Shown here piece after piece: positions 1,619 through 56,578 of a stretch of DNA of 64,000 nucleotides. Position numbers and translations under genes: made by a program. Source of the stretch: Ignavibacteriota bacterium (GTDB lineage: Bacteria; Bacteroidota; Ignavibacteria; UBA10030); assembly GCA_022616555.1 (NCBI GenBank), contig JAKEEG010000066.1:1702-65701 (forward strand), given 5' to 3'. Under the pieces are notes generated by a model, which worked only from the letters and a program-made list of their open reading frames with translations, searched no databases and was not told the origin of the DNA. Within the stretch, counting starts at the first letter, position 1; each line of letters starts with the position of its first letter.

Positions 1619-2794
1619 ATGAAGATTCCTCTAAAATATACCGTGAGAAATTTCCGCAGCCGGCGATTGACGACCGCCATCACGATTACAGGCGTTGCGC
1701 TTGTCGTCTTTGTGTTCGTCGCCGTGATGATGCTCTCCAACGGCATCACAGCGACGCTGATCGCCACCGGGTCGACGGAGAATGTGTTGGTCGCGCGCAA
1801 GGCGGCGAACGGCGAGATTTCCAGCATCATCATGAACGAGACCTACAATATTATCCTGACGCTTCCGCAGGTTGCCAAGGATGCCGAGGGTAAACCGATT
1901 GCCACCGGCGACGTCGTTGTGGTGATTAACCTGCCGAAGATTGGGACGGAAGGCGGCTTCAGCAACGTCACCGTGCGAGGCGTGTCACAGCCGGCGTTCG
2001 ACCTTCGCCCTATGGTGAAAATTGCCGAAGGAAGGATGTTCAACTGGGGTGCAAGGGAGATTATCGTGGGGAGTGCCGTTACAAAGCGGTTTGAAGGAGC
2101 GCAGATTGGGAACGTCATTAAATTCGCGGGGGATAACTGGACAATTGTCGGCGTGTACGAAGCGGACCGCACAGCGTTCGATTCCGAAATCTGGGGCGAT
2201 GTTTCGCAGATCCAGGACGCGTTTAGAAGGGGAGTATCGTTTTCGACTGTCACGTTTCGCTTGAGCAGCCCTGACCAGTTTGAGGCATTGGAAAAGGCGT
2301 TTGCAGACGATAACCGGCTCCAGCAATTCGAGCCGAAAATCGAGCAGGCGTACTTTGAAGCGCAATCCGAGTTTATGGCAATCTTCATCAGCGTGCTGGG
2401 GATTTTTGTGACGGTGTTCTTCAGCGTGGGCGCGATTATCGGCGCGATGATTACGATGTACACTGCTGTTGCAAACCGCACGACGGAGGTTGGCACACTG
2501 CGTGCGCTCGGCTTCCAGCGCCGGAATGTGTTGTTTGCATTTCTGACGGAATCGATACTCATCTCGCTTATCGGCGCTGCCATTGGGCTCTTCCTTGCTT
2601 CGTGGCTGCAGTTCTTTACGGTCTCGACGATGAACTGGGGTTCATTCTCTGAGCTGGAGTTTTCGTTCACGCTAACATTGAAGATCATACTCTACGCCGT
2701 GGGATTCTCTATTTTGATGGGCGTGGTTGGAGGCTTCCTGCCGTCGGTAGCCGCGGCGCGGTTGAATATTGTGAACGCGCTGAGGTCTGCATAA
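1619..2794 (+). CDS. ABC transporter permease, FtsX/MacB-like (second copy)
   Basis: 391 aa with the same architecture as 10..1170, and the two are paralogous (MKI..LKYTVRNFRSRRLTTAITITGVALVV). Confidence 0.8.
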   Translation: MKIPLKYTVRNFRSRRLTTAITITGVALVVFVFVAVMMLSNGITATLIATGSTENVLVARKAANGEISSIIMNETYNIILTLPQVAKDAEGKPIATGDVVVVINLPKIGTEGGFSNVTVRGVSQPAFDLRPMVKIAEGRMFNWGAREIIVGSAVTKRFEGAQIGNVIKFAGDNWTIVGVYEADRTAFDSEIWGDVSQIQDAFRRGVSFSTVTFRLSSPDQFEALEKAFADDNRLQQFEPKIEQAYFEAQSEFMAIFISVLGIFVTVFFSVGAIIGAMITMYTAVANRTTEVGTLRALGFQRRNVLFAFLTESILISLIGAAIGLFLASWLQFFTVSTMNWGSFSELEFSFTLTLKIILYAVGFSILMGVVGGFLPSVAAARLNIVNALRSA

Positions 2795-23036: not shown

Positions 23037-25235
23037 TTACCGCACGAGGATGATAGCGCGTGCGTGGCGGGAGGAGGGCGTTAACATCCGGACGATGTAC
23101 ATCCCGCTTGCCGCCGGCGAGCCGTCGCTGCCGTCGCCTGCCCACCGTACTTGGAATTCGCCTCTCGCCCTCTCTGCATCGAGCAATGTCTTGACTTCCT
23201 GCCCCAGCACATTATACACGCGCACGGCGACACGCGCCGGCGCGGGTATCCCGAATACAATTGTTGTTTCGCGGTTGAACGGGTTGGGATAATTCGGGAG
23301 AATGTAGCTCGTCGTCGGGAGGACGGGCGCTACGTTGGAGACCGGCGGCTGGAGGTAGCTCAAGCCGTTGGTGCGGATTTCTTCCAACTGGTAATAGTAC
23401 GATACGCCGCGCTGGGTGGTTGTGTCGAAAAATTCCGTGGTTGTCAATGAATCCGCATTTAAGTTGGCGAACGGAGCAGTGCCGAGTTTCCGGCGAATGT
23501 TGTACGAGACGACATCGGGGTTGTTTGCCCAGTCGATCAGCACCCCCGTTTCCGTAGAAGTGAACGTGAGCGCGGCCGTGCTTGACGCATTCCACACGCG
23601 CCCCATTTGGATGATACCGGCGTCAAATTCGCCTAAAGAGCCGAGGTATTGTTTCATCGCTTCATCCGCGCCGAAAGCAGTATCTACGCGGCTGATAAAT
23701 TGAATGAGGCCGTTTGATACTTCTCCCGCTAAATCGGCGACAAATTCGTTGAGAGCGATGCGATAAACTTTGTTTAGGTCCAGAGGCTCATTGTTGATCC
23801 AAACATCTTCCACAAAGCCTAACGAGGAAATTGTGTATTGCAATCCAGAGGTTTGGAACGCCAGTCCACCGCCTCCACCGCCGAAAAAATCGGACGACAA
23901 TTGCTGAGCAGAATTGAGCATAAAATGAAACATCGAGCCGGTCATTTCTACGAGCGTGATGCGTTTGCCGAGATTGTGTACCGAGTCGTACGCCCAGGAG
24001 AGCGTCTGCCGAAGCTCCGCAGTGGAGATCGCGCCTGCGTAAAGGCTCTGCCGCATGAGCGATGAGACTTCCAGCGCGGCGTCGGCGTTGGTGGCGTATA
24101 CGTAGGCGTCAGTGACTAAATTCACGAGCGGGGATTCCGGGTTGCCGCCGGAAAAATTATTCTCTGGGAATTCAGCAGTTAACACAGCGACAGTATCGGA
24201 GTACGGGTTGTTGTACGTTGCGTTGATGGAATCGCGGTACGCGTCCAGCAGCGCGGTAAACACGGCGTCTTCATCCAGCGGCGCATCGATTTGATCTAAC
24301 TGGTACGACCACGACTTTGTGCTGTCGGTCAATATCAACGTGAGCATGCCGAGATAGCGCCACTTGGAGCCCGCCTGCACGATAATAGTTGAATCGCCGG
24401 CGGGATTGATTTCGAGCACAGGTTCTTCGAGCGGTGTGTGTGAGTGCCCGCCTACGATAACGTCGATGCCGGCTACGTTCTGTGCGATTCGTCGGTCTTC
24501 GCTCACGCCAAGATGCGTAACGGCGATGATGACATCAACGTTACGTGCAGTAAGTGAGTCTACCATACTTTGCGCTGTGCCGGTAGTGCTTGCAAATGTG
24601 ATTGATTCCGTTTCGCCGTACGAAGTCGTTGTGCGTGTCGTCAACCCGAAGATCCCAACATCCAAGCCGCCGATGTTTTTGACGACGAATGGTTTCACGT
24701 ATTGGTCCAGCCCGCTCGTGTCGGCATTGTACTGAATGTTGGCAGAAAGGATATCGAACATTGCTCCGGATTCCACGATGGCGTTCTTTAATCGGAACGG
24801 ACGGATGTCGAAATCATGGTTGCCGAGCGCCATGGCGGTCATGCCCATTTCGTTGAAGAGCTCAAACTCTGCGCGACCGAGGAAGCGGTTAAAAATCAAA
24901 TCGCCGGTGAAGCTGTCGCCGCCGTGGAGCAACAAGGGATTAACGGATGAATCGCGCAGGACGTTGAGCCGCTGAACAAGCCGAGCCGCCGCGCCGTTTT
25001 GGGGGACGCCGTTCACTTTGGGTCCCCACGGATAGACGTAGCTGTGCGTGTCGTTGATGTGGAAGATGGTCAACGTGTCTTGGGCGTGAATAGTTTGTAT
25101 GAAGAATAAACCGATGAGTAAAATGTTAAGTGTAAAGTAACCCCCTGCGTTCCGGTTAGCCGCGGCTAACCGGAACGCGTCCCCCTTGGTTAGGGGGACA
25201 AAAAAGCTAATGAATTTGTGCATCACACTAAGCAT
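23037..25235 (-). CDS. bifunctional metallophosphatase / 5'-nucleotidase with C-terminal T9SS (Por) sorting domain
   Basis: It has the calcineurin-like motifs GNHDFD and GGHSHT and a 5'-nucleotidase C-domain. The C-terminus (NYPNPFNRETTIVF...VYNVLGQEV...SGMYIVR) is the T9SS type-A sorting signature. The ORF extends to 25361 but the first ATGs are at 25235/25223, so the start is uncertain because REP copies occupy the 5' region. Confidence 0.8.
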   Translation of the reverse strand: MLSVMHKFISFFVPLTKGDAFRLAAANRNAGGYFTLNILLIGLFFIQTIHAQDTLTIFHINDTHSYVYPWGPKVNGVPQNGAAARLVQRLNVLRDSSVNPLLLHGGDSFTGDLIFNRFLGRAEFELFNEMGMTAMALGNHDFDIRPFRLKNAIVESGAMFDILSANIQYNADTSGLDQYVKPFVVKNIGGLDVGIFGLTTRTTTSYGETESITFASTTGTAQSMVDSLTARNVDVIIAVTHLGVSEDRRIAQNVAGIDVIVGGHSHTPLEEPVLEINPAGDSTIIVQAGSKWRYLGMLTLILTDSTKSWSYQLDQIDAPLDEDAVFTALLDAYRDSINATYNNPYSDTVAVLTAEFPENNFSGGNPESPLVNLVTDAYVYATNADAALEVSSLMRQSLYAGAISTAELRQTLSWAYDSVHNLGKRITLVEMTGSMFHFMLNSAQQLSSDFFGGGGGGLAFQTSGLQYTISSLGFVEDVWINNEPLDLNKVYRIALNEFVADLAGEVSNGLIQFISRVDTAFGADEAMKQYLGSLGEFDAGIIQMGRVWNASSTAALTFTSTETGVLIDWANNPDVVSYNIRRKLGTAPFANLNADSLTTTEFFDTTTQRGVSYYYQLEEIRTNGLSYLQPPVSNVAPVLPTTSYILPNYPNPFNRETTIVFGIPAPARVAVRVYNVLGQEVKTLLDAERARGEFQVRWAGDGSDGSPAASGMYIVRMLTPSSRHARAIILVR

Positions 25236-46355: not shown

Positions 46356-47177
46356 ATGCCCGACACCAACGACGACATTAAAAAACTCCTGACAGACGTC
46401 CAACGGTACCTCAAAGAAGAGCAAGAGCTCTTCGGCGATTACATTTATACTGAGTCCACTATGCCCCCTAAAAAACAAGCCGGTAAACCGGAAGCTCAGC
46501 AGCCTTCGAAGCCGCCCCTCGAGCAGGATCTTTTTGGAAGTACGGCTCCCCCCGCAAAGCCCGGAAAAATCGCCGAACAGCACACACCGTATCCCAACGA
46601 GCCATGGGTGAAGTCAAGCACGCTTGACGAGCTGAACAGCATGATCTGCAACTGCACCAAATGTTCGCTTGGGCATACCCGGACGAAATTCGTGTTTGGC
46701 GTGGGCAACCCGAACGCAGATATTGTGATCGTCGGCGAGGCTCCCGGAGCGGACGAAGACGCGCAGGGCGAGCCGTTCGTGGGCAGGGCGGGACAACTGC
46801 TAAACAAAATTTTAGAAGCAATTAACTTCAAGCGCGAGGAAGTCTATATCTGCAACATCCTCAAGTGCCGCCCGCCGGGCAATCGCGACCCGCAGCCGGA
46901 GGAAGTCGAGGCGTGCATTCCCCACCTCTGGAAGCAAATCGAGATCATCAAACCGAAACTTATCCTGTGTTTGGGACGTATTTCTGCACAGATGCTGCTG
47001 AAAACCAACGCCTCGCTCGGCGATATGCGCGGCAAGGTGCATGACTACCGGGGCATCAAGATGATGGTCACGTACCACCCGGCGGCGTTGTTGCGCAACC
47101 CGAACTGGAAGAAACCCACGTGGGAAGACGTTCAGAAATTCCGCAAGATGTACGACGAGATGAAGCAGCAACCTTAG
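46356..47177 (+). CDS. uracil-DNA glycosylase, family 4, with about 80-aa Pro/Lys-rich N-terminal extension
   Basis: It has the family-4 UDG motifs ([34 protein letters not shown] and [10 protein letters not shown]). Confidence 0.8.
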
Positions 47178-47183
47178 AAATAT

Positions 47184-47216
47184 TGTCCCCCTCCCAGAGG
47201 GGGATACAGGGGGAGA
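47184..47216. repeat. REP-like palindrome (TGTCCCCCTCCCAGAGGGGGATACAGGGGGAG)
   Basis: Near-identical to the copies at 22992-23023 and 25371-25403. Confidence 0.7.
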
Positions 47217-47237
47217 TCTCAGGTCGTGCAAAAAGCG

Positions 47238-47527
47238 TCCAAAGGAAATCGGTATCTTTACAGCGGAGTATGAGCTTTTTTGTTACTTCTTTGCTCGTGC
47301 AAAAGAAGTAGGCAAACCCATAAACTGTGTTAATGATCTTGGGTTCTTTACTTTCTTTCCGAGAAAGAAAGTAACAAAGAAATCTTCCCGAAATCGAAGC
47401 ACACCTCATGACCCCTTCGCTCTTGCCATGATTTCAGCCTTGAGAAGGCGAGGCTGAAATCAAACGCAGTCATGAGTTTGCCTGCCCGCGCCACCTACGA
47501 TTTCGGTTTGCCTTCGCTCAAAAAAAG
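47238..47527 (+). repeat. roughly 290-bp highly structured repeat, copy A (5' hairpin TACTTCTTTGC-tcgt-GCAAAAGAAGTA; nested inverted repeats CGAAATCG/CGATTTCG, CTCATGAC/GTCATGAG, ATTTCAGCC/GGCTGAAAT)
   Basis: Direct comparison with 49030-49270 shows a conserved backbone. Copy A has an extra roughly 75-bp insert that itself contains the palindrome TTACTTTCTTTC-cgag-GAAAGAAAGTAA. Confidence 0.7.
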
Positions 47528-47670
47528 GGAGAAGTGGCCTATCTATAAGCACAAATAGAAACACCACACCGCTGACGCGGAGCGCTTTTTGCGTTTGGCT
47601 CGTCTAAATATAGAGCCGGACTACAAAACACTTTGTCCGCCAAAACCTCGCGAAACCCTTGGAGCACCGA

Positions 47671-48975
47671 ATGAATGAGTCTAGACTGAAGAATGCTATC
47701 GTCCTCCGCATGGTTATTGTTGGTTGTCTTTCCCTTATTTTGCTTATCCCGACGATTTTTATCGATTCGCTGATTGATGAACGTCAAGAAAGGCGCCAGT
47801 CCGCCACCACCGAGGTGAGCCAAGGCTGGGGAGGGGCGCAGACGCTTGTTGGCCCGATCATCACCGTTCCCTATAAAACATATTATAAGAACGATAAGGG
47901 GGATATGCTGCATTCGATCAACCACGCGCATTTTTTGCCTTCGGAACTGAATATCCGCGCCGCGGTGCAGCCTGAAATCCGTTACAGAGGAATTTATGAA
48001 GTCGCTCTCTACCAGGGACAATTTCTTGTCGAAGGCAAATTTGACAACATCGATTTTGAAAGGTTCGGCGTAGCACCTGAAAACGTCGTGTGGAGGGATG
48101 CCATTGTCAGTTTTGGCGTATCGGATCTGAAGGGGATTCGCGATACAGTTGTTCTCAAGTGGAATCAACGTTCGTATCCTTTGACGCCCGGAGTGATTGC
48201 TGATGGACTGATGAAATCGGGCATGACATTTCGACCGTTGGTACAGGCTTCGCTCTCGGAGATGAGCTTCTCGCTGCCGGTGAACCTCAACGGAACGGCG
48301 GAAATTTCGTTTGTCCCGGTTGGCGAAATAACGCACGTGTTCATGGGGTCTAGTTGGAGCGACCCGAGTTTCGTCGGCGGGTTTCTGCCCACTGTGCGGG
48401 AAGTCGGTGCAAACGGATTCAAGGCAGAATGGAAAGTCTTGAGCCTGAACAGGAATTTTCCGCAGGCATGGGTTGGTGACGGGCACAATCTTCAGGAGTC
48501 CTCCTTTGGGACGCGACTGCTGCTTCCCGTGGACCACTACCGGAAATCCGAGCGCACAGTAAAGTACGCGCTGTTGTTCATTGCGCTCACATTTGCGTCG
48601 CTGTTTCTCTCCGAGATGATGACGAAAACGGCGATCCACCCGATTCAGTACACGCTTATCGGATTTGCGCTCATTCTCTTTTATCTGTTGCTTCTCTCGC
48701 TTTCAGAACACATTGGCTTTGACACCGCCTATGGTGTCTCAGCCTTGCTGGTGATCGGGTTAATTTCGTTCTACACGAAATGGATTACAGCGAAAGCGAG
48801 AGTAGCTGTCGTCGTGTTTTTCGTACTTATGGTTCTTTATCTGTTCCTGTACGTGACCCTGCAATTACAAGACTATGCGTTGCTGTTCGGAACGCTGGGC
48901 TTGCTGCTGACGCTGTTTTTGATCATGTATATCACGCGCCATGTCGATTGGTTTTCTCCGGAGTCGATCACCTAG
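47671..48975 (+). CDS. creD: cell envelope integrity inner membrane protein CreD family
   Basis: About 434 aa with an N-terminal TM helix, a large periplasmic domain and a C-terminal multi-TM region typical of CreD. ATG at 47671; the ORF-track TTG is at 47659. Confidence 0.75.
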   Translation: MNESRLKNAIVLRMVIVGCLSLILLIPTIFIDSLIDERQERRQSATTEVSQGWGGAQTLVGPIITVPYKTYYKNDKGDMLHSINHAHFLPSELNIRAAVQPEIRYRGIYEVALYQGQFLVEGKFDNIDFERFGVAPENVVWRDAIVSFGVSDLKGIRDTVVLKWNQRSYPLTPGVIADGLMKSGMTFRPLVQASLSEMSFSLPVNLNGTAEISFVPVGEITHVFMGSSWSDPSFVGGFLPTVREVGANGFKAEWKVLSLNRNFPQAWVGDGHNLQESSFGTRLLLPVDHYRKSERTVKYALLFIALTFASLFLSEMMTKTAIHPIQYTLIGFALILFYLLLLSLSEHIGFDTAYGVSALLVIGLISFYTKWITAKARVAVVVFFVLMVLYLFLYVTLQLQDYALLFGTLGLLLTLFLIMYITRHVDWFSPESIT

Positions 48976-49029
48976 AGCCAGCAGACGTAGCAGAGAATCT
49001 TTATATTTACGGAGTGGATAGTACTGTAG

Positions 49030-49270
49030 GACAAAGGGAAATATCTGTTAGATTGTTTTTTGTCACTTCTTTGCTCGTGCAAAGAAGTAACCAAGAAAGC
49101 ACGCCGAAATCGTATCTCACGCTCATGATACCTTCCCGCTTGCCGTGATTTCAGCCCCTTTTGACTTTTACCATGATTTTTCGTTTGATACTAAGTGGGC
49201 TGAAATCAAACGCACGTTATGAGCTTCCCTCTCACGCCGCCGTCGATTTCGGTTCCCCGCACTCAAAAAC
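49030..49270 (+). repeat. roughly 240-bp structured repeat, copy B (same backbone as 47238-47527, without the central insert)
   Basis: It shares the 5' hairpin (CACTTCTTTGC-tcgt-GCAAAGAAGTA) and the nested inverted repeats. Several differences between copies are compensatory or G-U compatible. Confidence 0.7.
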
Positions 49271-49425
49271 ATTTCGTGAAAAGCTTTTTTTTCTGAACTT
49301 ACCATTCACAGTTGATGTTAATTTGCAGGTTGACAACTTGTGAATAGCGTTTTTAAAAAATATATTTTGAGAATTCGCGCTTTTTGTTGAACTTCGATTA
49401 ACCGTTTAGTATCATTACAGCCCCG

Positions 49426-50853
49426 ATGGCCGAACCGAGAAAAATATTAGGCTTAGTAGACCAATCATCCCCAGAGGGCCGCGTACCGCCGCAAGCTGTC
49501 GATGTCGAGATGGCGGTGCTGGGCGCGATGCTGTTGGAGAAAGACGCGATCGCGAAGGCGCTTGCCGTGCTGGACGACAGCGCGTTCTACAAGCCCGCGC
49601 ACCAAAGCATCTTCAAAGCGATGGTGGGGTTGTTCGAACGCAGCGAGCCTGTCGACCTCATCACGCTCATTGACGAGCTGAAACGACGCGGGGAACTGGA
49701 GAAAATCGGCGGCGAGTACTATCTCACAGAGCTGACAACGAAAGTGACCAGCGCGGCGAATGTGGAATATCACGCGCACATCGTACTGGAAAAAGCGCTG
49801 ATGCGGCTGTTGATTGCTTCATCGTCTGCCGTCATCGGCCGCGCGTTTACGGAGACGGAAGACGCTCTGGAGTTGCTGGACGAAGCCGAGCAGAGCATTT
49901 TCCAGATCTCCGAGCAGCGGATGAAGAAGAACTTCGTTTCGATGAGCAGCGCGGTGACGTCCACGATGGAGTTGCTGGAAAGCATCCACGGCAAGCACAG
50001 CGGCGTGACGGGCGTGCCGAGCGCGTTCACGGAGCTGGACTCGCTCACGGGCGGCTTTCAAAAATCGGATCTTATAATCGTTGCAGGCAGACCCTCGCAG
50101 GGCAAGACGGCGTTCGTGCTGTCGCTGTCCCGCAACGCGTCGGTATTGCACGATGCGCCGATTGGATTTTTCAGTCTTGAAATGTCGGTTCAGCAATTAG
50201 TATTGCGCCTCATCTGCGCGCAGGCGAAAGTCGACGCGCACGCCGTGCGCACGGGGCGTTTGCCGGAGGACGAGTGGAAGAAGTTGAGCATGACTGTCGG
50301 CAAGCTCTACAAAGCAAAGATTTTTATCGACGATACTCCCGCGCTCTCCATATTGGAGCTTCGGGCAAAGGCGCGGCGGCTCAAAGCCGAGCACAACATC
50401 GGCATGATCGTTGTCGACTACTTGCAGCTTATGCAAGGACCGAAGTCCGCACAGAGCCGCGAGCAGGAAATCTCGCAGATCTCGCGCTCACTCAAAGCGC
50501 TCGCAAAAGAATTGGATATTCCGGTCGTTGCACTCTCACAGTTGAACCGCGCAGTAGAGGCGCGTGGCGACAAGCGCCCTATGCTGGCGGATTTACGCGA
50601 ATCCGGAGCGATTGAACAGGACGCCGACGTGGTGATCTTCGTCCATCGCCCGGAAATGTACGGCATTGAAAAAGACGAGAATGGCGAGCCGACCGAAGGC
50701 ATTGCGGAGATCATCGTCGGCAAGCAGCGTAACGGCCCCACAGGCACGGTGAAGCTCTCGTTCGTGAAACGCTACGCGCAGTTTGAAAATCTTGCGCGCT
50801 TCCGGGAAATCCCCTCGCTCCCGATGGGTCCTGAGGAAGAGCAGCCGTTCTAG
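49426..50853 (+). CDS. dnaB: replicative DNA helicase
   Basis: 475 aa with an N-terminal DnaB domain, a Walker A (GRPSQGKTAF), and RecA-like H2/H3/H4 motifs. There is no intein. Confidence 0.9.
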   Translation: MAEPRKILGLVDQSSPEGRVPPQAVDVEMAVLGAMLLEKDAIAKALAVLDDSAFYKPAHQSIFKAMVGLFERSEPVDLITLIDELKRRGELEKIGGEYYLTELTTKVTSAANVEYHAHIVLEKALMRLLIASSSAVIGRAFTETEDALELLDEAEQSIFQISEQRMKKNFVSMSSAVTSTMELLESIHGKHSGVTGVPSAFTELDSLTGGFQKSDLIIVAGRPSQGKTAFVLSLSRNASVLHDAPIGFFSLEMSVQQLVLRLICAQAKVDAHAVRTGRLPEDEWKKLSMTVGKLYKAKIFIDDTPALSILELRAKARRLKAEHNIGMIVVDYLQLMQGPKSAQSREQEISQISRSLKALAKELDIPVVALSQLNRAVEARGDKRPMLADLRESGAIEQDADVVIFVHRPEMYGIEKDENGEPTEGIAEIIVGKQRNGPTGTVKLSFVKRYAQFENLARFREIPSLPMGPEEEQPF

Positions 50854-56471: not shown

Positions 56472-56522
56472 GAAGCTAAGTTGTGAAGCAATTGTCTTTT
56501 GGAAGGCCGGATGCTTGTGATG

Positions 56523-56578
56523 TCAGGAGTTACCTCCTGACATGAGCAGTTTTTCGGTCAGGACGTAAGTCCTGACCG
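56523..56578. repeat. tandem hairpins sharing a GTCAGGA/TCCTGAC core (GTCAGGAG-ttac-CTCCTGAC; CGGTCAGGAC-gtaa-GTCCTGACCG) in a divergent intergenic region
   Basis: Two perfect stems (8 and 10 bp) with tetraloops. The first is followed by AGTTTTTC. Confidence 0.6.

Follow-up and report, generated by a model that had tools for sequence, protein, structure and literature searches.

Copies of a small family of structured non-coding elements on either side of creD in an uncultured Ignavibacteria lineage

Two structured repeats around creD

Ignavibacteria are relatives of Bacteroidota that are rich in uncultured members. In a 64,000-nucleotide (nt) stretch of DNA from one of them (Ignavibacteriota bacterium, assembly GCA_022616555.1, contig JAKEEG010000066.1, positions 1,702 to 65,701; hereafter the window), a creD gene stands between the genes for a uracil-DNA glycosylase (UDG) and for DnaB, all on the + strand, and the intergenic regions ahead of creD and dnaB each hold one copy, A and B respectively, of a highly structured repeat (Table 1). 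An initial annotation of this DNA had described the two as direct structured repeats flanking creD, which is what we find in both position and strand: they are direct, non-coding, + strand copies that are about 80% identical. We identified them as two of at least six distinct copies, in at least three genomes, that make up a small, lineage-restricted and previously undescribed family of structured non-coding elements in an uncultured Ignavibacteria lineage. The DnaB and CreD proteins also occur on a contig of the metagenome-assembled genome GCA_973857345.1 and on Logan contigs from that strain, and the nearest named relatives are Ignavibacteria/Bacteroidota genomes of the same type; according to the coordinates of contig L001, contig CCZUAG010000095.1 covers only positions 16451-64000 of the window.

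Copies A and B can be aligned over about 190-240 nt, with many 1-nt indels, and are matched by BLAST in three blocks (80.5% identity over 77 nt, 79.7% over 74 nt and 94.3% over 35 nt; E values of 1e-8 to 1e-12). The pattern formed by the arms of helix P3, TGATTTCAGCC-N12-42-GGCTGAAATCA, occurs exactly twice in the window, compared to 0.00 occurrences expected from shuffles. The three nested inverted-repeat pairs originally recognized, here called P1, P2 and P3, are present in both copies. Overall, a member of the family starts with a near-perfect end hairpin that has GTTACTT...AAGTAAC arms and a variable but complementary inner stem, continues through a purine-rich linker into a rod of about 130-160 nt in which P1, P2 and P3 are parted by C-rich internal loops, and finishes with a short conserved tail (C-T/A-C-A-A/C-A-A), for a total length of about 190-290 nt. 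A perfect 5' hairpin common to both copies had also been proposed; its stem is perfect in copy B, while in copy A it carries a 1-nt bulge. The 12-bp palindrome taken to be an extra insert in copy A does exist, but it is no oddity, being the standard hairpin of the family (Hb).

The 1-nt indels between copies and the absence of any common open reading frame (ORF) rule out a coding element. A 7-codon ORF with its ATG inside P2, considered as a leader peptide (MTPSLLP-stop in A, 47408-47431; MIPSRLP-stop in B, 49125-49148), loses its frame in a relative (contig L129) and is probably none, and conservation is also lacking for the ORFs that some assemblies call on the minus strand. No conserved sigma-70-like promoter or intrinsic terminator was found at the element ends on either strand, in a scan that may miss the promoter type of this phylum.

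Table 1. Positions of the two copies, their parts, the adjacent genes, and the intervals upstream of dnaB in the window and in relatives (window coordinates unless a contig is named; CM, covariance model, with R1 and R2 as described in the text).
Feature	Position	Strand	Remarks
UDG gene	46356-47177	+	Pfam UDG, E = 3e-42; upstream neighbour of copy A
C/G-run module TTGTCCCCCTCCCAGAGGGGGATACAGGGGGAG	47185-47222	+	Immediately past UDG stop codon; same module ahead of copy C in L144 (alignment); terminator-like hairpin flagged on minus strand
Copy A	47238-47527	+	
U segment, copy A (CAAAGGAAAT...TTTTTTGT)	47238-47281	+	Common to copy B only
Hairpin Ha, copy A (GTTACTTCTTTGC-tcgt-GCAAAAGAAGTA)	47282-47310	+	1-nt bulge
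Copy A-specific spacer	47311-47347	+	Holds inverted repeat AACCCA/TGGGTT
Hairpin Hb, copy A	47348-47374	+	Perfect 12-bp stem, 3-nt loop; identical in A, B', C and D1
Purine-rich linker, copy A (CAAAGAAATCTTC)	47375-47387	+	Joins hairpin to rod
Core rod, copy A	47388-47506	+	P1/P2/P3 and C-rich internal loops; CM R1 130 bits, R2 128 bits
P1, copy A (CCGAAATCG/CGATTTCGG)	47388-47396 with 47498-47506	+	
P2, copy A (CTCATGAC/GTCATGAG)	47405-47412 with 47469-47476	+	
P3, copy A (TGATTTCAGCC/GGCTGAAATCA)	47429-47439 with 47452-47462	+	12-nt loop
3' tail, copy A (TTTGCCTTCGCTCAAAAAAAG)	47507-47527	+	Repeats CCTTCGCTC of J2/3 loop (47414-47422)
creD gene	47671-48975	+	Pfam CreD, E = 6e-150; protein identical to P0121; copies A and B on either side
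Copy B	49030-49275	+	
U segment, copy B	49030-49061	+	
Hairpin Ha, copy B (GTCACTTCTTTGC-tcgt-GCAAAGAAGTAAC)	49062-49091	+	Perfect 10-bp inner stem (49065-49088)
Linker, copy B (CAAGAAAGCACG)	49092-49103	+	
Core rod, copy B	49104-49252	+	CM R1 171 bits, R2 139 bits
P1, copy B (CCGAAATCG/CGATTTCGG)	49104-49112 with 49244-49252	+	
P2, copy B (GCTCATGAT/GTTATGAGC)	49121-49129 with 49216-49224	+	Two G.U pairs
P3, copy B (TGATTTCAGCC/GGCTGAAATCA)	49146-49156 with 49198-49208	+	41-nt loop
3' tail, copy B (TTCCCCGCACTCAAAAACATTTC)	49253-49275	+	D1 has similar tail
Promoter-like region	49387-49415		Promoter scan; between copy B and dnaB start codon; conserved in L129
dnaB gene	49426-50853	+	Pfam DnaB and DnaB_C; downstream neighbour of copy B
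dnaB upstream interval, window	48976-49425		
dnaB upstream interval, L122	2199-2372		
dnaB upstream interval, L123	9804-10000		
dnaB upstream interval, L126	9860-10000		
dnaB upstream interval, L139	1167-1322		
dnaB upstream interval, L141	1964-2099		

Further copies and their surroundings

A search for more copies, as proposed with the initial annotation, brought up full-length ones in other assemblies. The probe was a spurious 60-amino-acid (aa) "protein" called on the antisense strand of the element in contigs L131 and L132; a word-indexed protein search with it led through P0242 to contig L142, and an exhaustive HMMER search through P0248 to contigs L143 and L144. Four distinct copies were added to A and B. 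Copy B' (contigs L129-L132) precedes dnaB, with no creD, in a relative whose DnaB is 94% identical. Copy C (L143/L144; L144 comes from the same sample as L129) is at an unrelated locus, where its flanks are a 397-aa gene and a HEPN/MNT pair, both encoded on the other strand, and it is convergent with its neighbouring gene. D1 and D2 (L142, a third metagenome-assembled genome) are a diverged pair placed tail to tail where a lycopene cyclase gene neighbours UbiE. Three genomes have at least two copies each, at unrelated loci, and the genes flanking C and D have no homologue in the window. The copies occupy unrelated intergenic contexts (UDG/creD, creD/dnaB, ABC-2 permease/dnaB, the 397-aa gene by HEPN-MNT, and lycopene cyclase by UbiE), in either orientation to their neighbours, and close relatives differ in whether a given locus holds the element.

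The surroundings of C and D have features of their own. A 30-nt direct repeat, CGCATTTTCCGCCGCCGGAGATGC(G/A)GGTTT (L142 6756-6785 and 7364-7393), flanks the D1/D2 pair within a 1.1-kb intergenic region, and a possible third, degenerate fragment (12.7 bits) lies at L142 6564-6632. Toxin-antitoxin-type genes are found near D (YoeB/YefM, L142 4745-5187) and near C (HEPN/MNT, L144 3073-3584), that is, in accessory-type neighbourhoods.

A covariance model built from A, B and B' (R1) gave 25 bits for D1 and D2 and 92 bits for C, and a second model built from all six copies (R2) scores its members at 88-139 bits. Model R2 had zero matches in 756 kb of unrelated bacterial DNA and found nothing further in the window or the relatives, and about 3 kb of sequence past the window end holds no copy. 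A scan of genome contigs for the exact 17-mer GGCTGAAATCAAACGCA returned 119 stretches, all of them chance matches that lack the remaining motif; a gapped-pattern scan of JGI metagenomes matched only the L132 contig, plus two chance matches; and three scans of viral contigs were empty. No hairpin of the Ha, Hb or Hc type (see below) occurs elsewhere in the window, which rules out a high-copy hairpin family there. On the other hand, two independent Logan contigs (L002 and L137) both start inside Hb of copy A, a hint that the genome has more Hb-bearing copies. Rfam 15 gave no gathering-level match across the whole window, and E-value scans of A/B and of L129, L142 and L144 gave only chance microRNA or snoRNA matches far below threshold. 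ARAGORN found nothing, and in the literature we found no description of this family, nor of such repeat families or non-coding RNAs in Ignavibacteria.

Hairpins of other sequence do occur in the window. Between the SpoU methylase and NDH-2 genes there are two related 10-bp hairpins side by side (56520-56578), ATGTCAGGAG-ttac-CTCCTGACAT and CGGTCAGGAC-gtaa-GTCCTGACCG; a perfect 15-bp hairpin (TAACACCTGCGAGGT...) lies at 2801-2836, and a 14-bp GC-rich palindrome (GCGTTCCGGTTAGC/GCTAACCGGAACGC) at 25147-25178.

The interval upstream of dnaB is a gene-turnover hotspot beside an essential gene, with or without the element. At the B' locus an ABC-2 permease gene precedes dnaB, and 16 nt separate its stop codon from the hairpin. 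Relatives whose DnaB is 81-89% identical have a spacer of only 140-200 nt ahead of dnaB and no element, and the upstream neighbour of dnaB in these element-free relatives changes each time (ABC-2 permease, creatininase, DUF1684, ABC fragment, MjaI restriction system). One of them, L123, shares the gene order NFACT-YicC-Gmk-RpoZ-CoaBC-UDG with the window; creatininase stands in place of A-creD-B, and no element follows UDG. Nor is there an element near the creD homologue of highest sequence identity (67%). Since creD is absent at the B' locus and the element is absent at the closest creD homologue, creD and the repeats are not a conserved unit, and the creD cassette suggested in the initial annotation does not survive the comparison.

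Two further ideas about this interval were considered and rejected. A replication origin near dnaB, raised by DnaA-box-like motifs, does not fit the GC skew, which is positive across the whole window with no switch. The box-like motif itself, TGTGAATAG, lies upstream of dnaB at 49339-49347 (within 49330-49347); at the equivalent position L129 has a perfect palindrome, TTCACAATTTGTGAA (about 905-925), and relatives carry TGTGGATAA-like boxes. Likewise, the P3 loop of B' (TTCAGCCCGTTGACTTTTGTTGC, L129 745-767) matches the dnaB promoter region of L122 (2308-2331) at 19 of 23 positions, but capture of an ancestral dnaB promoter in the P3 loop of B/B' is not significant (p of about 0.003 in one of 25 comparisons).

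Comparison of the copies also shows that modules (hairpin plus linker, U segment, upstream C/G-run) have been exchanged between them. B' is a mosaic: its 5' part (hairpin, linker and 5' arm of P1) is A-like, with 54 of 58 positions matching, and its 3' part is B-like. The 41-nt module of Hb and linker is 94-96% identical among A, B', C and D1, though the D1 core can barely be aligned. While Hb is identical in four copies from three genomes, the U segment plus Ha is the more local and recent module, 94% identical between A and B compared to about 80% for their cores. The upstream C/G-run module, TTG(T)CCCCCTCC...GGGGGATnCAGGGGGAG, is common to A and C (L144, about 2470-2560, minus strand), so the repeated unit of these two copies is longer than the core element. 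Finally, synteny breaks coincide with the hairpin edge: L131 and L129 share 99% identity downstream of a point 14 nt ahead of Hb and are unrelated upstream of it.

Helices maintained through compensatory substitutions

Both copies in the window fold far better than shuffled sequences (z = -5.2 for A and -4.5 for B), and 0 of 200 shuffles fold equally well. In an alignment of the six copies, which stand for perhaps three or four independent lineages and were aligned with the guidance of a model carrying the structure, standard pairs make up 92.6% of stem cells, and both sides changed in 12 of the 28 pairs. None of 500 shuffles reaches these values, slid controls pair at 23-47%, and a second count gave a similar picture. 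Run by itself, RNAalifold finds P1 and P3 again and detects 11 covarying pairs. The proposal that differences between copies are partly such as to preserve pairing is borne out by these counts.

The diverged pair provides clear instances. The helices are recovered in minimum free energy folds of single copies; that of D2 gives P1 as AAAATCA/TGATTT, P2 as AGAGCTG/CAGCTCT and P3 as TTTCGCTGGA/TCCAGCGAAA, with a P2 sequence that is wholly different yet complementary. In D1 the helices are GTCGAAATCAT/ATGATTTCGAC (P1) and AATCTCGCGC/GCGCGAGATT (P3), and the P3 sequences of D1 and D2 differ. The same holds for the end hairpin, which comes in three variants distinguished by the inner stem (Ha, CTTTGC; Hb, TCTTTC; Hc, CTTCG) inside a constant GTTACTT...AAGTAAC frame; these differ at three or more inner-stem positions, and the arms are complementary in all. 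These observations show that the helices are maintained through compensatory substitutions, on evidence that is strong in kind and small in amount.

The folded strand could be either of the two, as the available cues conflict. On the creD-sense strand the non-Watson-Crick cells are six A.C and one or two G.U, which would favour the antisense strand, while the C-rich loops point to a conserved asymmetry of the sense strand, for which a palindrome acting purely as a double strand would have no need. In all six copies the fold of the antisense strand is lower in energy by 6-25 kcal/mol; however, z-scores are alike for both strands and fail to separate them, and we rejected strand assignment by folding energy. 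In addition, each copy has a string of its own that appears both in the J2/3 loop and in the tail following P1 (CCTTCGCTC twice in A, TTCCC(C)GC in B, GCCGCTTCCCC twice in D1).

Candidate readings and known systems

We tentatively favour a reading, falling a little short of probable, in which A and B are paralogous members of a small, lineage-restricted, dispersed non-coding family that behaves as a non-autonomous mobile or recombining repeat, similar to REPINs or to miniature inverted-repeat transposable elements (MITEs), and whose single-strand fold is under selection. It is favoured because of the dispersal of the copies, their patchy presence, the exchange of modules, their clustering, and the coincidence with synteny breaks. 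The element would move or recombine as DNA in the REPIN or MITE manner, a factor encoded elsewhere in the genome would recognize it, and the end hairpin may be a preferred junction for exchange of flanking DNA. Selection would act on the fold of one single strand, either as single-stranded DNA at replication or repair or as co-transcribed RNA. Under this proposal creD would be outside the element, with two family members merely standing on either side of it in a fast-turnover region upstream of dnaB. The element marks synteny breakpoints beside the essential dnaB gene and, if mobile or recombinogenic, it would provide a handle on accessory-gene shuffling in this lineage.

A number of observations weigh against a mobile repeat. 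The 64-kb window holds only two copies and encodes no transposase, integrase or reverse transcriptase, and the single contig returned by the JGI exact-pattern scan indicates that the family is rare in the public data scanned. Terminal inverted repeats were not found at the element ends, where the 5' hairpin (GTTAC...GTAAC) contrasts with a non-complementary 3' tail (CTCAAAAAC) and P1 is set back from the 5' end by 40-45 nt and from the 3' end by 20-25 nt. Similarly, no target-site duplication, whether shared or specific to one copy, was found when the flanks of the six copies were compared by eye at the boundaries of inter-copy similarity, and no clean pair of empty and filled sites could be aligned, the intergenic DNA being too diverged. 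The real, structured, multi-copy element initially put forward is supported, and it could be either a MITE family or an sRNA. Moreover, unpaired motifs are conserved (J2/3 CTTCCCGCTTGC and J3/2 AAACGCACGTC), and on the sense strand C accounts for 44% of loop positions and G for 18% in all six copies, opposite to the positive local GC skew. Conserved loops and a strand bias would be superfluous for a selfish DNA repeat and fit an RNA with a function of its own.

This leads to the main alternative, which we consider possible but clearly the less likely, namely that the copies are independent genes of a sibling small-RNA (sRNA) family, possibly derived from a mobile element, with the RNA strand co-directional with creD and dnaB. 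The 5' clamp hairpin would stabilize the RNA, and the C-rich loops and tail (CUUCCC, UUCCCCGC, CACGCCGCC) would pair as seeds with G-rich targets, for example ribosome-binding sites, or be bound by a protein. Covariation in three helices together with the conserved unpaired nucleotides argues for an RNA, and the conserved loops and strand bias are better explained by it than by a mobile repeat. The copies are oriented without regard to the genes around them, B and B' occupy the same place as orthologues, and sibling sRNAs such as LhrC and RsaE/RoxS do exist as several paralogous copies per genome, with two to three C-rich unpaired motifs per molecule and stable flanking hairpins. On the other hand, neither strand has a conserved promoter upstream of the hairpin or an intrinsic terminator past the tail, the stem mismatches on the proposed strand are mainly A.C, relatives at 81-89% DnaB identity lack the element, and module shuffling and the tail-to-tail pair resemble repeat DNA. 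The two readings are not mutually exclusive since repeat-derived sRNAs are known, and the repeat is possibly also made into RNA; if so, it would represent a new sRNA class.

We regard as unlikely a third explanation, in which the element is a recombination site for gene cassettes, loosely comparable to attC or att sites, and a circular creD segment with its own copy joined a resident copy upstream of dnaB, giving two hybrid direct repeats. The direct repeats that bracket creD, the different gene upstream of dnaB in every relative examined, the resemblance of B' to the 5' part of A plus the 3' part of B, and the synteny breakpoints at the hairpin edge are all in line with it. However, the window encodes no integrase or recombinase and the copies lack attC core sites, the hotspot turns genes over in element-free relatives as well, C, D1 and D2 bracket no genes, the closest creD homologue is without the element, and exchange of the Hb module explains the mosaic equally well. 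Comparably improbable is a bolder reading in which the family would be a new class of structured nucleic acid active in gene exchange at chromosomal hotspots: an enzyme encoded at an unlinked site would recognize the invariant module of hairpin and linker and cut or join there, the rod with its copy-specific J2/3 and tail strings would give specificity, and genes such as creD would be swapped beside dnaB.

The duplicated 5' leader also suggested in the initial annotation, a cis-acting or riboswitch-like control of creD and dnaB, draws on the fact that every copy in the window and in L129 has a gene of the same orientation 145-170 nt downstream, but it is largely refuted already and very unlikely. 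The copies have no fixed position or orientation ahead of coherent genes, as what lies downstream of them is creD, dnaB, the convergent 397-aa gene (C faces its 3' end) or another copy (D1 and D2 face each other), and these genes are unrelated. Furthermore, dnaB keeps its own conserved promoter-like box (TTGAAC/TTGAAG-17-TATCAT) between element and start codon, relatives run dnaB without the element, and no Rfam family matches. Neutral local duplication without a selected structure, suggested by the two copies in the window and by A/B differences that are mostly simple substitutions and indels, is already refuted and has next to no probability left, given copies in unrelated loci and genomes, pairing kept though P2 and P3 sequences are entirely replaced, and end-hairpin arms complementary in three sequence variants. 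With the cassette, leader and duplication readings each contradicted, an autonomous, structured and dispersed unit is left.

Small structured intergenic repeats and sRNAs are known kinds of object; this architecture and this family are absent from Rfam. Among known systems, integron attC sites have RYYYAAC...GTTRRRY core sites, are 57-141 nt long, and come with an integron integrase or a cassette array. The element resembles them in having imperfect inverted repeats, in direct orientation and bracketing a gene, and in conserved structure with variable sequence. It differs in its length of 190-290 nt (about 1.5-5 times that of attC), in the lack of an integrase in the window, in that most copies bracket no cassette, and in its ends, AAGTAAC and GTTTGCC or GTTCCCC, which fall outside the core-site consensus. 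With the sibling sRNAs LhrC and RsaE/RoxS the element shares paralogous copies, repeated C-rich unpaired motifs and stable flanking hairpins. Unlike them, it is a rod of much greater length, lacks a recognisable promoter or terminator, is known here from DNA alone, and varies in presence even between close relatives.

MITEs with conserved folded transcripts such as Correia, ERIC and bcr1 (PMC3184786) and related stem-loop families (PMC2267715) are likewise intergenic and dispersed, measure 100-300 nt, form stable stem-loops, and often occur as adjacent copies and at rearrangement sites (PMC3184786, PMC2267715). Nevertheless, no insertion sequence related to this element is known, and with inverted repeats that are internal and not terminal and no target-site duplication found, it does not qualify as a MITE, any more than as an attC site or a member of any Rfam family.

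REPINs are REP doublets mobilised by RAYT transposases (PMC3116915, PMC3337134), and a REP unit is described as a palindrome of 20-40 nt with a GTAG or CGTC tag at one end (PMC3733652). The element does not belong to REP/REPIN sequences as so defined: its hairpins begin with GTTAC or GTCAC and finish with GTAAC, with no GTAG/CGTC tag; no RAYT is seen in the window; and its copy number appears low, at 2 in 64 kb compared to tens to hundreds for REPINs. Further differences are the C-rich internal loops of the rod, which are large, asymmetric and conserved, the additional clamp hairpin at the terminus, and a tail that is not palindromic. What it does share with REPINs is the make-up of short extragenic non-coding repeats with inverted segments, two inverted units and a spacer forming one long imperfect hairpin, here the P1-P2-P3 rod, in which pairing is held by compensatory change (PMC3116915, PMC3337134), as well as several copies per genome that are non-autonomous and persistent within a lineage. 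The Ignavibacteria element thus joins this long-hairpin trait to a clear, covariation-backed architecture of clamp hairpin, three-helix rod and C-rich loops, and model R2 provides a specific probe for further members, whether they act as mobile DNA or as RNA.

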